Assembly (NCBI RefSeq): GCF_030013595.1
Contig: NZ_CP122768.1
Direction: 5' to 3' (one strand)
Source: Escherichia coli
GTDB taxonomy: Bacteria > Pseudomonadota > Gammaproteobacteria > Enterobacterales > Enterobacteriaceae
Length of the DNA stretch: 64,000 nucleotides
Shown here piece after piece: positions 57,001 to 60,000 of the stretch. A program made the position numbers. Numbering within the stretch: position 1 is the stretch's first letter; each line of letters opens with the position of its first letter.

Positions 57001-60000
57001 CTGTAGCTGCAAAACTCATAATTAATCCTTTTAACTAGAAATGGATAAGTGCTAATAAGAAATCTTACAGAGAATAAAATATGCAATATATTCGTAGCTG
57101 GCATAAAACATCTCAATACTTATGCGTGCTACTGAAGATACTATCAACCATATATGCCTTGAAGAATGCACCGTCATGTTAACCTGGTGGAAACATTCAC
57201 CTAAAGTACATTAATAAAACTAATAAAATTATTTAATTTTTTATTTGATATGATTATCATCAAGTCTTAAAATACGTTCTCCGGTTCTAATTATGCTAAA
57301 ACCATAGTATTCTTTTTTACTTCCGGAAGAGAGCATATATTTCCCGATATACATAACATCTGAAGATAGCTCACTTATATCAATACATACGGGTTCGAAC
57401 TGACCTGTCACTCTTTTCAACTTTATTGCATTGCCATATTTACCTTCATATAAAACATAATTTGAAATAATATTCCCATCGTCTGGTTTTGAACAAATCT
57501 GTCCGTCTTGCAAATATACACTACCGGGTAACAATGGGCGAACATAATCACCAACAGTGCATCCCGACAAAAAGAAAAACAAAAAGAATCTCTTCATATG
57601 ACACCCGCAGGAAATAAATTAAGCACCTTTTTGTATTTTTCCGATAGAGTGTTCACTGATTCAGTTGTATCACCTACATAGTTAACATTTGCCAAATCAG
57701 CCACCAGTCCATAGTTAATTAATAGCCAATAATCAGCAACTATAGATGCTTGTTGTTCCATGGAATAAGAAGAAATTGACTGTAAATTAAGATCGTAATG
57801 ATAATTTGCCGCCCAAGAAAATAAACCACGCAACTTAACTGCATACCCTTTCTGATATTGCCAAACATGCATCATTTCATGAATAAACAAGTGAGAAGCA
57901 CCTGCTACTGTTTCACGATCACCAGGCATTGCTTGCGATGAATAATCTGAACTATAAACAGCATCAGGATAATACATTTCCCCGTTTGGGGTCATCGCTG
58001 TTCTTTCCCCTTGACCAGGCAAATATTTTTCATTGTGGATCCATACCTTGCTATAATCAATTGTATTCTCAAAAATCGATCTGGCCAATGTTAATTCACC
58101 AGATGTCATTCTCCTTAATGACATATCCTTTCCCCTGGAAATAATATCTTTCAGATAAAACACAAACGCCCTTTGATGTTCAATATTCCCACTTTATACA
58201 GTATTGATGACATCATCTTCATAGAAAATAAAATCAAAGCAAGTTATCAACGTTTCCCGTTATGATTTCTTAACATTAATTCTCAGCATTTTTATTAATC
58301 TATCTTCAATATCAATAACCGATGCAAATGATTACGCAGCTAACATAATTCTCATCAATTGATTAATGTCTGTAAACGCTACCGCCCCACCCTGATATCT
58401 TAATCTGCACATAGCAATCTTAACGTTATGCCCCATACATTAGTAATGTAAATTAAGAATTCGGAATATATCAAATTCACTTCATAAATTAATATCGGGA
58501 ATGATATACACATTAATTATAATGAAGTAATGTTTTAAGAGTTGTAATGACCATGGAACAGGACTAATTCCAGAAGCTCCTGTTGGGCAATAGCGCGTTT
58601 ATCATCCTACATGCCTCTTACATTTTTTAGCCTTTTCTTTAACGTCAGCAATTGGCTCATTTAATCAGCAATTGTATTGGTATTTGGCGTATTACCCCTG
58701 AAACCCGTCATGTGCTAGCACCTCACTATTCAATGAGCCAACCACGCCAGTGTCCACTGCAACCACTGGCGTTCAGAGCGACGAACGAGTGGCGCAAGAG
58801 TAGGACTGCCGTCGGGCATCATCAAACCAATAGTGGTTGTTTCCGTCAAAATTTCATCAGGTTGCTATTTTGTTGCCGGCCGCCTTTATCCCCACATATT
58901 TATAGCGGGATTATTTTGCATCGTTACACGATAAAAGGTAGGATTCTGCGCCGACAGTTATACCCATAAAGAATAATGGTGAATCTTGTCATCGCCAGGA
59001 TGAATAAACATTGTTCATGGCAACTTATATGACTTTTTCATTAAAGCAATCAGGGAGAGCAATGAGTAAACACGACACCGACACTTCAGATCAACACGCC
59101 GCGAAACGCCGCTGGCTTAATGCCCACGAAGAGGGGTATCACAAAGCGATGGGCAATCGCCAGGTACAGATGATCGCCATTGGCGGCGCGATTGGCACCG
59201 GCTTGTTTTTAGGCGCGGGAGCCCGACTGCAAATGGCGGGTCCAGCACTGGCACTGGTTTATTTAATTTGTGGCTTGTTTTCGTTTTTTATTCTGCGTGC
59301 ATTGGGTGAGCTGGTGTTACACCGCCCTTCCAGTGGCAGTTTTGTCTCTTATGCCCGTGAGTTTTTAGGAGAGAAAGCCGCTTACGTTGCAGGCTGGATG
59401 TACTTCATCAACTGGGCGATGACGGGGATTGTCGATATTACCGCCGTTGCACTGTATATGCATTACTGGGGCGCATTTGGTGGTGTACCGCAGTGGGTCT
59501 TTGCGCTCGCTGCGCTGACCATCGTTGGCACCATGAATATGATTGGTGTGAAATGGTTTGCCGAGATGGAGTTCTGGTTTGCGCTTATTAAAGTGCTCGC
59601 CATTGTGACCTTTTTGGTCGTGGGTACAGTGTTCCTCGGTAGTGGTCAGCCGCTGGATGGCAACACCACTGGCTTTCATTTAATTACCGATAACGGCGGC
59701 TTCTTCCCCCACGGTTTGCTACCTGCGCTGGTGTTGATTCAGGGCGTAGTGTTTGCTTTTGCCTCCATTGAAATGGTGGGTACAGCTGCCGGAGAATGTA
59801 AAGATCCGCAGACCATGGTGCCTAAAGCGATTAACAGTGTGATTTGGCGTATTGGCCTGTTTTACGTCGGCTCCGTGGTGTTGCTGGTTATGTTATTGCC
59901 GTGGAGCGCGTATCAGGCGGGGCAAAGTCCGTTCGTGACGTTTTTCTCTAAACTGGGTGTGCCGTACATCGGCAGCATTATGAACATTGTGGTGCTGACC

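Follow-up and report, generated by a model that had tools for sequence, protein, structure and literature searches.

Immediately upstream of a vgrG gene in the 64000-nucleotide stretch of Escherichia coli DNA analysed here (the window), two overlapping genes very probably encode an antibacterial T6SS effector–immunity module, i.e. a periplasmic toxin neutralized by a lipoprotein, in which the toxin belongs to the VgrG2b C-terminal metallopeptidase family. The pair is un-named, but it is an ordinary member of a known and already validated family and not a new kind of system. A preliminary description of this DNA had suggested, as one of two alternatives, a toxin paired with an immunity lipoprotein, possibly a cargo module of the vgrG island, and this reading is supported by the homology of the effector, by the relationship of the lipoprotein to the NF045617 family and by linkage with vgrG and T6SS genes. 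The features of the pair are as follows.

57594–58124, minus strand: effector gene, for a putative zinc metallopeptidase (VgrG2b C-terminal family) of 176 aa, leaderless
57594–58163, minus strand: longest peptidase ORF, 189 aa from the GTG at 58163
57867–57881, minus strand: HEMMH zinc-binding/catalytic motif (H82, E83 and H86), read from the sequence
57756–57758, minus strand: E123 in the invariant M-E-Q-Q, which the alignment predicts to be the third zinc ligand (gluzincin)
57594–57597, minus strand: ATGA overlap of effector stop and immunity start, read from the sequence
57241–57597, minus strand: immunity gene, 118-aa lipoprotein ORF
57559–57570, minus strand: lipobox L-S-G-C with Cys13, read from the sequence

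The peptidase had been described as a 189-aa protein, and the minus-strand ORF is indeed present, but its start is likely to lie elsewhere. RefSeq/PGAP begins the protein at the ATG at 58124 to give 176 aa (WP_000058705.1); as this ATG is preceded at 6 nt by AGGGGA and homologues are approx. 172–186 aa long, the product is probably the shorter protein. It has no signal peptide. The 4-bp overlap with the lipoprotein gene, also described previously and seen at the ATGA, suggests translational coupling. A literature search on the accessions of the two proteins returned no paper.

The family of the peptidase was assigned by both sequence and structure. Residues 4–138 matched PDB entry 6H56 with an E-value of 1.9e-20, the sole match in a phmmer search of all PDB chains, and the identity to the VgrG2b domain is 30–36% over approx. 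150–160 aligned positions. The AF2 model (pLDDT of 92.3) also had 6H56 as its only significant fold match in Foldseek (E=4.8e-9, probability 1.00, TM 0.64), the next match having an E-value of 2.4. Remote homology and structure prediction, the checks proposed at the outset, thus both lead to this zinc-peptidase effector domain, and on these comparisons the peptidase is a free-standing homologue of the VgrG2b metallopeptidase effector domain.

The HEMMH motif, which had been read as a zincin motif, is real and not a chance occurrence. In an alignment of 32 peptidase homologues (44–69% identity), H82, E83 and H86 are invariant, as are Q89 and E123-Q-Q, so the conservation of the catalytic residues on which the original claim had been made to depend is complete. 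HEMMH aligns with HEMTH of VgrG2b, and E123 aligns with the glutamate of its IEQQ. In VgrG2b, H935, E936 and H939 are needed for toxicity, and the zinc of 6H56 has E983 as its third ligand (PMC6899460); we infer that E123 is the equivalent of E983.

Searches of NCBIfam and Pfam gave no match to a housekeeping peptidase family, and the Pfam search returned zero matches for either the peptidase or the lipoprotein. The suggestion of a DUF4157-like fold proved weakly right: Pfam eCIS_core/DUF4157 (PF13699) reached E≤0.1 in 19 of the 32 homologues, but E≤0.001 in none of them, and the window protein showed nothing even at E≤10. The peptidase shares an HExxHxxQ-type motif with eCIS_core/DUF4157, and many family members carry the DUF4157 annotation according to Wood et al. 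(PMC6899460); at best, it is a distant relative and not a member by the Pfam model. The label ‘type IV secretion protein Rhs’ attached to many homologues is a misnomer, the protein being 176 aa long with no Rhs match in NCBIfam or Pfam. PADLOC gave no match of the pair to any known anti-phage defence family. Separately, strain C11 has genes for a HEIGH protein and a signal-peptide protein upstream of its main-cluster vgrG; a relationship of the HEIGH protein to the present peptidase family was ruled out by hhalign (probability of 0.5%).

The 118-aa partner carries the LSGC lipobox that had been noted previously. Because Cys13 is followed at position +2 by threonine and not by the Lol-avoidance aspartate, the lipoprotein is predicted to be targeted to the outer membrane; the +2 sorting rule and the outer membrane location of the homologue SARI_02726 have been described (PMC6899460). 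Against the model NF045617 (‘putative T6SS immunity periplasmic lipoprotein’) the protein scored 30.9 bits (E=2.3e-7), which does not reach the curated cutoff of 43 bits, whereas the partners of other peptidase homologues score 46–106 bits. An hhalign comparison of the lipoprotein alleles with above-cutoff NF045617 members nevertheless gave a probability of 96.7% (E=4e-10, 101 columns), and C13, C35 and C71, which are invariant in the E. coli alleles, all align with invariant cysteine residues of those members. These profile comparisons place the lipoprotein in the immunity family NF045617 as a divergent member. The mature protein is predicted to be an all-β FN3/Ig-like sandwich; structure searches returned FN3-like matches, and a single-chain co-fold of the pair with a paired alignment gave a pLDDT of approx. 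80–89 in the lipoprotein domain and a pTM of 0.69, a value that describes the overall model and is not an interface score. Word-seeded and exhaustive HMMER searches for relatives returned E. coli alleles only, apart from giant repeat proteins (Rib, LapB and tandem-95 repeats) matched in the exhaustive search. Given the repeats of these giant proteins and the FN3/Ig-like prediction, we regard the latter matches as generic β-sandwich similarity with no functional link. The function of PA0261, the immunity protein of VgrG2b, depends on DsbA (Wood et al., PMC6899460).

The pair lies in a strain-variable island, whose remaining features are listed below.

49011–58906, no strand assigned: strain-variable island from ydcC to ansP (blastn of K-12 against the window, and annotations)
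57020–57240, minus strand: spacer between immunity gene and vgrG, 221 bp, AT-rich
55025–57019, minus strand: vgrG, 664 aa (TIGR03361, E=1e-166)
54522–54974, minus strand: DcrB-related (Eag-like) protein, an ORF with this PGAP name in a near-identical genome
49872–54503, minus strand: Rhs toxin gene, the first cargo of the island (ORFs)

The blastn comparison bore out the statement that K-12 has unrelated genes at this site, the whole of the island being the non-homologous segment. From ansP to ydcC, K-12 has yncG, yncH and the rhsE pseudogene, and the island takes the place of yncG-yncH-rhsE′-ydcD-yncI′. Both genes of the pair are AT-rich, as had been stated, with a GC content of 32–37% across 56800–58600, against approx. 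50% in vgrG and ansP and 60–64% in the Rhs core. The position just upstream of vgrG was likewise correct, the lipoprotein stop codon lying 221 bp from the vgrG start codon. No terminator-like or promoter-like site was found on the minus strand of this spacer, and in the promoter and terminator scan of 56800–59100 the signal was not clearly over the shuffled background; co-transcription of the pair with vgrG is possible. The island VgrG has 73% amino acid identity with the VgrG of an aspV-linked E. coli T6SS cluster and is the candidate carrier of the effector. Its only Pfam domains are Phage_GPD, Phage_base_V and Gp5_trimer_C; it lacks TTR, DUF2345 and adaptor domains, nor is there a gene for an adaptor dedicated to a cargo effector. 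Judging from its position, the DcrB-related protein is probably the chaperone of the Rhs toxin and belongs to the island and not to the pair. The Rhs gene itself is broken in the window by an in-frame TAG at 51168–51170, which takes the place of a glutamine of the intact 1548-aa homologue in genome NZ_CM149870.1.

Across 5426 complete E. coli genomes, the pair was found in 230 (approx. 4%) and the island vgrG allele in 234, a nearly one-to-one association; the pair is complete in 222 genomes and vgrG in 195. The T6SS sheath gene tssC was surveyed in a sample of the 60 top-ranked carriers and was found in 59, the remaining carrier having neither tssC type. One tssC type occurs in 56 of these 60 carriers compared with 27% of all genomes. 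Genomes whose copy of the pair is identical to that of the window have the second, aspV-linked type, which was matched almost solely in island carriers; an apparent absence of T6SS from the genomes closest to the window, obtained with an Erwinia tssC probe, was overturned by the native aspV-cluster tssC probe. Among the carriers are avian-pathogenic strains as well as isolates from pigs and humans.

The island is not functional everywhere, given the stop codon in the Rhs gene of the window and the single carrier without either tssC type. These two observations would also fit a relic, in which delivery of the effector has ceased in this lineage and the pair is kept mainly because its lipoprotein guards against attackers still firing this toxin, or because the island is decaying. 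The peptidase gene of strain FCI1, which is split by IS50R next to an intact immunity gene, and the approx. 27 genomes with the pair but a truncated vgrG (222 complete pairs against 195 complete vgrG genes) point in the same direction. However, the effector ORF of the window is intact with every catalytic residue present, its product is 100% identical to that of genomes with the aspV-type T6SS, and nearly all sampled carriers have a sheath gene. We therefore consider a relic or defence-only role unlikely and favour a delivered effector.

The arrangement of the two genes recurs in other species. Among 64 stand-alone peptidase homologues in species-representative genomes, a tightly linked downstream ORF was present at 50 loci, with the same 4-bp overlap at 25, a lipobox at 42 and a partner of the NF045617 cluster at 46; some loci have two to four immunity paralogues in tandem. 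A consistent linkage to vgrG, which had been put forward as a check, holds in E. coli, but not elsewhere: vgrG is a neighbour at only six of the 40 loci with full flanks, and at every locus where it was found its position is downstream, with the same orientation. At ten of these 40 loci the neighbour is hcp, and at eight loci hcp directly follows the immunity gene. In an Escherichia marmotae IncF plasmid, peptidase, lipoprotein and tssD form a compact module beside a Tn3-family transposase. These neighbours, the small size of the effector and the lack of a cargo-docking extension on the island VgrG raise the possibility that the 20 kDa protein travels in the lumen of the Hcp tube and that its adjacency to vgrG is incidental. 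We think this route plausible, though rather less than an even chance, as the near one-to-one association with the vgrG allele in E. coli and the constant position and orientation of vgrG wherever it was found argue for a link to the spike, and as the domain is covalently fused to VgrG or to shorter carrier domains in other lineages (also PMC6899460).

A T6SS gene was found within 10 kb at 13 of the 40 full-flank loci and at none of the other 27, which might suggest that the peptidase and a cognate lipoprotein inhibitor have an endogenous envelope function or some other non-competitive role outside T6SS. Orphan effector–immunity modules far from the core clusters are, however, common for T6SS cargo. 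Moreover, the enzyme is leaderless and its partner exported, so that they would stay apart in the producing cell if the enzyme did not arrive from outside, and in E. coli the pair strongly co-occurs with vgrG and tssC. Together with the experimentally established T6SS-dependence of homologues (PMC6899460; PMC12992299), this makes a role unconnected with T6SS extremely improbable.

Under the T6SS effector–immunity reading, the 176-aa thermolysin-like (gluzincin) zinc peptidase would be made without a signal peptide in the cytoplasm and loaded on the T6SS, with the VgrG spike encoded next to it or possibly the Hcp tube as its carrier, before being injected into the periplasm of nearby Gram-negative cells. 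T6SS pairs that act in the periplasm are characterized by this topology, in which the enzyme lacks a leader and its partner faces the periplasm. By analogy with VgrG2b, catalysis may disturb the envelope at the division site and so lead to blebbing and lysis. The lipoprotein would face the periplasm from the outer membrane, where its putative disulfide-stabilized β-sandwich may bind and block the peptidase and thereby shield the producing cell and its kin. Toxicity, periplasmic action and neutralization by binding are thus attributed to the window pair by analogy with its characterized relatives. As VgrG2b has been called a trans-kingdom effector (PMC6899460; PMC12992299) and avian-pathogenic, pig and human isolates are among the carriers, the peptidase might also, or instead, act on host cells, as proposed for full-length VgrG2b in internalization. 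The existence of an immunity lipoprotein dedicated to the pair and facing the periplasm implies, however, that the target is bacterial, and nothing in our data ties the stand-alone domain to host factors; we consider a eukaryotic target very unlikely and retain the bacterial one.

In the E. coli/Citrobacter clade, an additional approx. 11–12 residues (around 65–76) stand directly before the catalytic helix. In view of this extra loop and of the unusually diverged and shortened immunity lipoprotein, it is conceivable, although we would not expect it, that the clade is a separate specificity group, which may evade immunity proteins from other clades or have another envelope substrate. If so, this could be the most tractable member for identifying the substrate of the family, since the pair is native to E. 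coli.

More generally, the pair provides a native E. coli model for the VgrG2b-type toxin family, gives the vgrG-Rhs island at the ansP/rhsE locus a second weapon, and raises the question of how cargo docks on a minimal VgrG without an adaptor. Its presence in approx. 4% of complete E. coli genomes, many of them from poultry, pigs and human infections, also means that the current labels, ‘hypothetical protein’ or the erroneous Rhs name, are to be corrected to a VgrG2b-type effector–immunity module in a sizeable set of genomes.

The family was defined in 2019 by Wood et al., who predicted lipoprotein-immune cargo versions in Enterobacteriaceae (PMC6899460). In that study, the C-terminal domain of VgrG2b and ACIAD0053 were toxic in the periplasm and needed their catalytic residues, and PA0261 neutralized the VgrG2b domain through binding (PMC6899460). 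Wood et al. were unable to establish a biochemical activity for the VgrG2b domain, whose phenotypes speak against generic peptidoglycan hydrolysis (PMC6899460); midcell blebbing similar to the action of β-lactams has been reported for VgrG2b. The window pair has in common with VgrG2b/PA0261 of the Pseudomonas aeruginosa H2-T6SS (6H56) a homologous domain, its fold, the zinc site of HExxH plus a distal glutamate, and an exported cysteine-containing immunity protein encoded directly downstream. In VgrG2b, however, the domain is fused to the C-terminal end of VgrG, following DUF2345 and TTR, whereas here it is a free protein of 176 aa whose gene precedes a canonical vgrG and, as in the rest of the E. 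coli/Citrobacter clade, has the extra approx. 11–12 residues before the catalytic helix. PA0261 is moreover a soluble periplasmic protein and not a lipoprotein.

The SARI_02727/02726 pair from SPI-20 of Salmonella enterica subsp. arizonae resembles the window pair in combining a stand-alone cargo protein, of 189 aa, with a downstream NF045617/IPR054657 lipoprotein. SARI_02727 is toxic in the periplasm and is partly neutralized by SARI_02726, which fractionates with the outer membrane (PMC6899460; PMC12992299), and the pair, first predicted by Wood et al. (PMC6899460), was validated in 2026 by competition and co-expression (PMC12992299). It lies inside a main T6SS cluster, in contrast with the auxiliary vgrG-Rhs island of the window pair, and SARI_02726 is 154 aa long compared with the 118 aa of the window lipoprotein, which falls below the NF045617 cutoff. 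ACIAD0053 of Acinetobacter baylyi likewise belongs to this family as a stand-alone cargo metallopeptidase, but what anchors its partner ACIAD0054, in the inner membrane, is a transmembrane helix and not a lipid (PMC6899460). The Tae/Tai and Tge/Tgi pairs, of which Tae4/Tai4 is included in the aspV-linked E. coli T6SS cluster, differ from the window pair in having unrelated folds and chemistry, yet share with it an organization in which the gene of a leaderless enzyme directly precedes that of an exported immunity protein.

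The two overlapping genes upstream of vgrG were read directly from the DNA, where the HEMMH motif, the lipobox and the 4-bp overlap were as claimed in the preliminary description.

57594..58163, minus strand, maximal ORF of the peptidase (ORF call)
57241..57597, minus strand, lipoprotein ORF (ORF call)
57867-57881, minus strand, HEMMH of the peptidase (read from the DNA)
57559-57570, minus strand, lipobox LSGC of the lipoprotein (read from the DNA)
57594-57597, minus strand, ATGA shared by the peptidase stop and the lipoprotein start (read from the DNA)
55025..57019, minus strand, vgrG (TIGR03361, E=1e-166), 221 bp downstream of the lipoprotein gene

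The length of 189 aa originally given for the peptidase holds for the maximal ORF, but the likely product is the 176 aa protein that begins at the ATG at 58124 (the RefSeq/PGAP start), because AGGGGA sits 6 nt 5' of this ATG and the shorter length fits that of the homologues, most of which have 172-186 aa. The pair and its flanks are AT-rich, as first noted, with 32-37% GC compared with approx. 50% in vgrG and ansP and 60-64% in the Rhs core.

The peptidase, which has no signal peptide, matched nothing in Pfam, NCBIfam or PADLOC, and the first two of these yielded no housekeeping peptidase family to which it might have belonged. A phmmer search of all PDB sequences gave a single match over peptidase residues 4-138 (E=1.9e-20), namely 6H56, entitled 'effector domain of Pseudomonas aeruginosa VgrG2b'. 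Across 32 aligned homologues (44-69% identity) the HExxH residues H82, E83 and H86 are invariant, as are V87, Q89, E123 and Q125, and the phmmer alignment pairs these positions with the VgrG2b motifs HEMTH and IEQQ. The crystal structure of VgrG2b has its zinc site at H935, E936 and H939 with E983, and mutation of the triad abolishes its toxicity (Wood et al. 2019, PMC6899460). An AlphaFold2 model built on the 32-homologue alignment (pLDDT 92.3, pTM 0.89) retrieved 6H56 alone from the PDB by Foldseek (E=4.8e-9, probability 1.00, TM 0.64), the runner-up having an E value of 2.4. An extra loop of approx. 11-12 residues precedes the catalytic helix and is found only in the closest relatives, including that of Citrobacter farmeri. 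The early suggestion of a DUF4157-like fold survives only as a faint sequence relationship, since eCIS_core (formerly DUF4157) reached E<=0.1 in 19 of the 32 homologues and E<=0.001 in none, and in Pfam it did not match the window protein itself. Many homologues are recorded as 'type IV secretion protein Rhs', a misnomer given that they lack Rhs repeats (and NCBIfam and Pfam detected no Rhs features in the window protein) and that their association is with type VI rather than type IV secretion; some others are named 'hypothetical protein'.

The sole family match of the lipoprotein was NF045617, 'putative T6SS immunity periplasmic lipoprotein' (E=2.3e-7), at 30.9 bits and thus below the curated cutoff of 43. 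Proteins encoded directly 3' of peptidase homologues in other species form three clusters, representatives of all of which lie above this cutoff (46-106 bits), and a profile built from the E. coli alleles aligned with the 118-aa cluster (probability 96.7%, E=4e-10) such that three invariant cysteines, that of the lipobox, C35 and C71, were in register. This alignment agrees with the report that the cysteines of homologues of PA0261, the immunity protein of VgrG2b, are partially conserved and that PA0261 is DsbA-dependent (PMC6899460). Close relatives of the lipoprotein were confined to E. coli in both word-seeded and exhaustive sequence searches and the protein is therefore fast-evolving; by sequence comparison, the E. 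coli immunity protein is markedly diverged and shortened. Its +2 residue is Thr, with no Lol-avoidance signal, and Enterobacteriaceae homologues are predicted outer-membrane lipoproteins, as confirmed by fractionation for SARI_02726 of Salmonella arizonae (PMC6899460). When the peptidase, a 30-residue linker and the mature lipoprotein were folded as one chain, with 33 cognate pairs in the paired alignment, the model (pTM 0.69, with no interface measure) contained an all-beta lipoprotein domain with a pLDDT of approx. 80-89, a prediction compatible with a complex but no proof of one. The predicted lipoprotein domain weakly resembles FN3/Ig sandwiches, and a sequence search found no solved structure for the immunity family. 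The exhaustive HMMER search with the lipoprotein also matched several giant database proteins (P0131, P0132, P0135 and P0136) at multiple stretches, in one case seven stretches of a 3183 aa protein (E=3e-17); in the three that were scanned (P0132, P0135 and P0136), the repeats are of the Rib/alpha, LapB or tandem-95 kind. These matches probably reflect generic Ig/FN3-like beta-sandwich similarity, in view of the fold predicted for the lipoprotein.

The best-supported reading of the pair, from sequence, models and analogy, is that of a putative antibacterial T6SS effector acting in the periplasm with an outer-membrane lipoprotein as its immunity protein. It draws on the homology to the VgrG2b C-terminal domain and NF045617, the fold, the conserved active site, the pair architecture and the association with vgrG and T6SS core genes, as well as on the topology, in which the enzyme is leaderless and its partner exported, and it bears out the proposal of a toxin with a lipoprotein immunity partner. 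By analogy with VgrG2b C-ter and ACIAD0053, which kill E. coli only if targeted to the periplasm with the catalytic triad intact (PMC6899460), the effector would act there as a peptidase, and the outer-membrane lipoprotein would neutralize it, as PA0261, which binds and neutralizes VgrG2b C-ter (PMC6899460), and SARI_02726 suggest. Competition and co-expression assays showed SARI_02727/02726 to act as a T6SS effector and its immunity protein (PMC12992299). Cells intoxicated by VgrG2b C-ter show midcell blebs and lyse, phenotypes that speak against generic peptidoglycan hydrolysis; no biochemical activity could be established for it by Wood et al., who proposed lipoprotein linkers and division-site enzymes as candidate substrates (PMC6899460). 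Delivery may be VgrG-dependent or Hcp-dependent; the module often adjoins hcp in other species.

The pair lies between ansP and ydcC, where K-12 has different genes, as first noted (yncG, yncH and the rhsE pseudogene), and the block without homology to K-12 spans 49011-58906. The pair is a second cargo module in an auxiliary vgrG-Rhs island, where the genes 3' of vgrG encode first a DcrB-related (Eag-like) and then an Rhs protein. The island VgrG is a minimal spike without a TTR or DUF2345 extension, and an adaptor gene for the effector is absent. The Rhs gene and the distal end of the island contain the following.

51168-51170, minus strand, in-frame TAG in the Rhs gene (49872-54503), splitting it into 1111-aa and 415-aa ORFs
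49400-49834, minus strand, 144-aa ORF directly 3' of the Rhs gene, with no NCBIfam match, likely the Rhs immunity protein
approx. 49015-49344, plus strand, SymE-family type I toxin gene
47727-48863, ydcC, ISAs1-family transposase gene

NZ_CM149870.1, 99.89% identical with the window over 20.9 kb, has Gln (CAG) at the TAG site and an intact Rhs protein of 1548 aa, so that the main toxin of the island appears from the sequence to be inactivated in the window strain. Together with E. coli FCI1 (NZ_CM172811.1, 3495-5568), in which IS50R splits the peptidase gene and leaves the immunity gene and vgrG intact, such that the effector is lost and the immunity retained, this makes a relic or immunity-only state real in some strains, but the effector ORF in the window is intact.

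The pair was found in 230 of 5426 complete E. coli genomes and the island vgrG allele in 234 (224 at >=95% identity), and in some genomes the vgrG next to the pair is truncated. Carriers were sampled by chimeric queries that ranked them first, and among the top 60 one tssC type was present in 56 (1458/5426 genomes overall), and just one had neither this type nor a second, aspV-linked one. The aspV-linked type, the VgrG of which has 73% protein identity with the island VgrG, was probed by megablast with tssC of strain C11; only 236 genomes matched in total, approx. 230 of them island carriers, and the aspV-type tssC therefore occurs almost only in carriers. From place counts we infer approx. 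115 copies, roughly 109 in carriers. HCP5S3_I2 and LCP30S3_I5, the two genomes in which the pair is identical with that of the window, have the aspV-type T6SS, and the island's distribution suggests that it belongs functionally to this lineage, although another T6SS type is also present in most of the top-ranked carriers. Directly upstream of the main-cluster (aspV-linked) VgrG of C11 (NZ_CP010133.1, 21759-22852, minus strand) lies a positional analogue, a 242-aa HEIGH protein and a 123-aa signal-peptide protein with a 4-bp overlap. Sequence searches of Pfam, NCBIfam and the PDB gave no match for the HEIGH protein, and hhalign (probability 0.5%) showed it to be unrelated to the VgrG2b family; the two are possibly a metallopeptidase effector-immunity pair not yet described.

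When one genome per species was scanned, 506 loci with relatives were recovered, and the best 80 of these comprised 16 that encode fusions or otherwise longer proteins (approx. 1030-1120 aa when fused to VgrG, approx. 400-460 aa with shorter carriers) and 64 stand-alone loci. Within these 64, a downstream ORF is tightly linked in 50, with the 4-bp overlap of the window in 25, a lipobox in 42 and a member of the NF045617 clusters in 46. Several loci, in Serratia, Erwinia, Enterobacter, Rahnella and Siccibacter, have two to four tandem immunity paralogues after a single peptidase gene. Such paralogues are typical of arms-race immunity genes, and the arrays are consistent with a build-up of orphan immunity genes.

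L015 10492-12320 and L049 10495-13537, tandem immunity arrays (also in loci L008, L011, L017 and L029)
NZ_CP099346.1 (conjugative IncF plasmid of Escherichia marmotae) 3338-7969, Tn3-family transposase, peptidase homologue, NF045617 lipoprotein and tssD (hcp)
Snodgrassella alvi (bee-gut betaproteobacterium; L047) 9962-15132, peptidase, sub-threshold NF045617 protein and vgrG, in the order of the window

The plasmid locus places the module on a mobile replicon as well. A T6SS gene lies within 10 kb in 13 of 40 full-flank loci (VgrG in six, Hcp in ten), often with TssB, C, K, L, M or ClpV, and the remaining 27 are orphan modules; T6SS genes are less regular neighbours here than in E. coli, with its tight linkage. 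Between S. alvi and the window the VgrG proteins share 66% identity and the peptidases only approx. 45%, which hints at separate histories of spike and cargo, as would also fit the GC contrast between pair and vgrG in the window.

No publication about the E. coli pair, or under its accession numbers, was found in a search that did not take in the catalogue of Ma et al. 2018 (BBA). The pair should help annotation and offers a tractable model for the family's unsolved substrate, but a T6SS specialist would find it unsurprising. According to Wood et al. (PMC6899460), many Enterobacteriaceae encode the metallopeptidase in the form of a putative cargo effector whose immunity protein is a lipoprotein, and validation of a stand-alone pair from Salmonella followed later (PMC12992299). 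The E. coli pair is an un-named member of this already known effector-immunity family, from which it is set apart by its loop, its diverged, short immunity protein and its place as second cargo in a vgrG-Rhs island.
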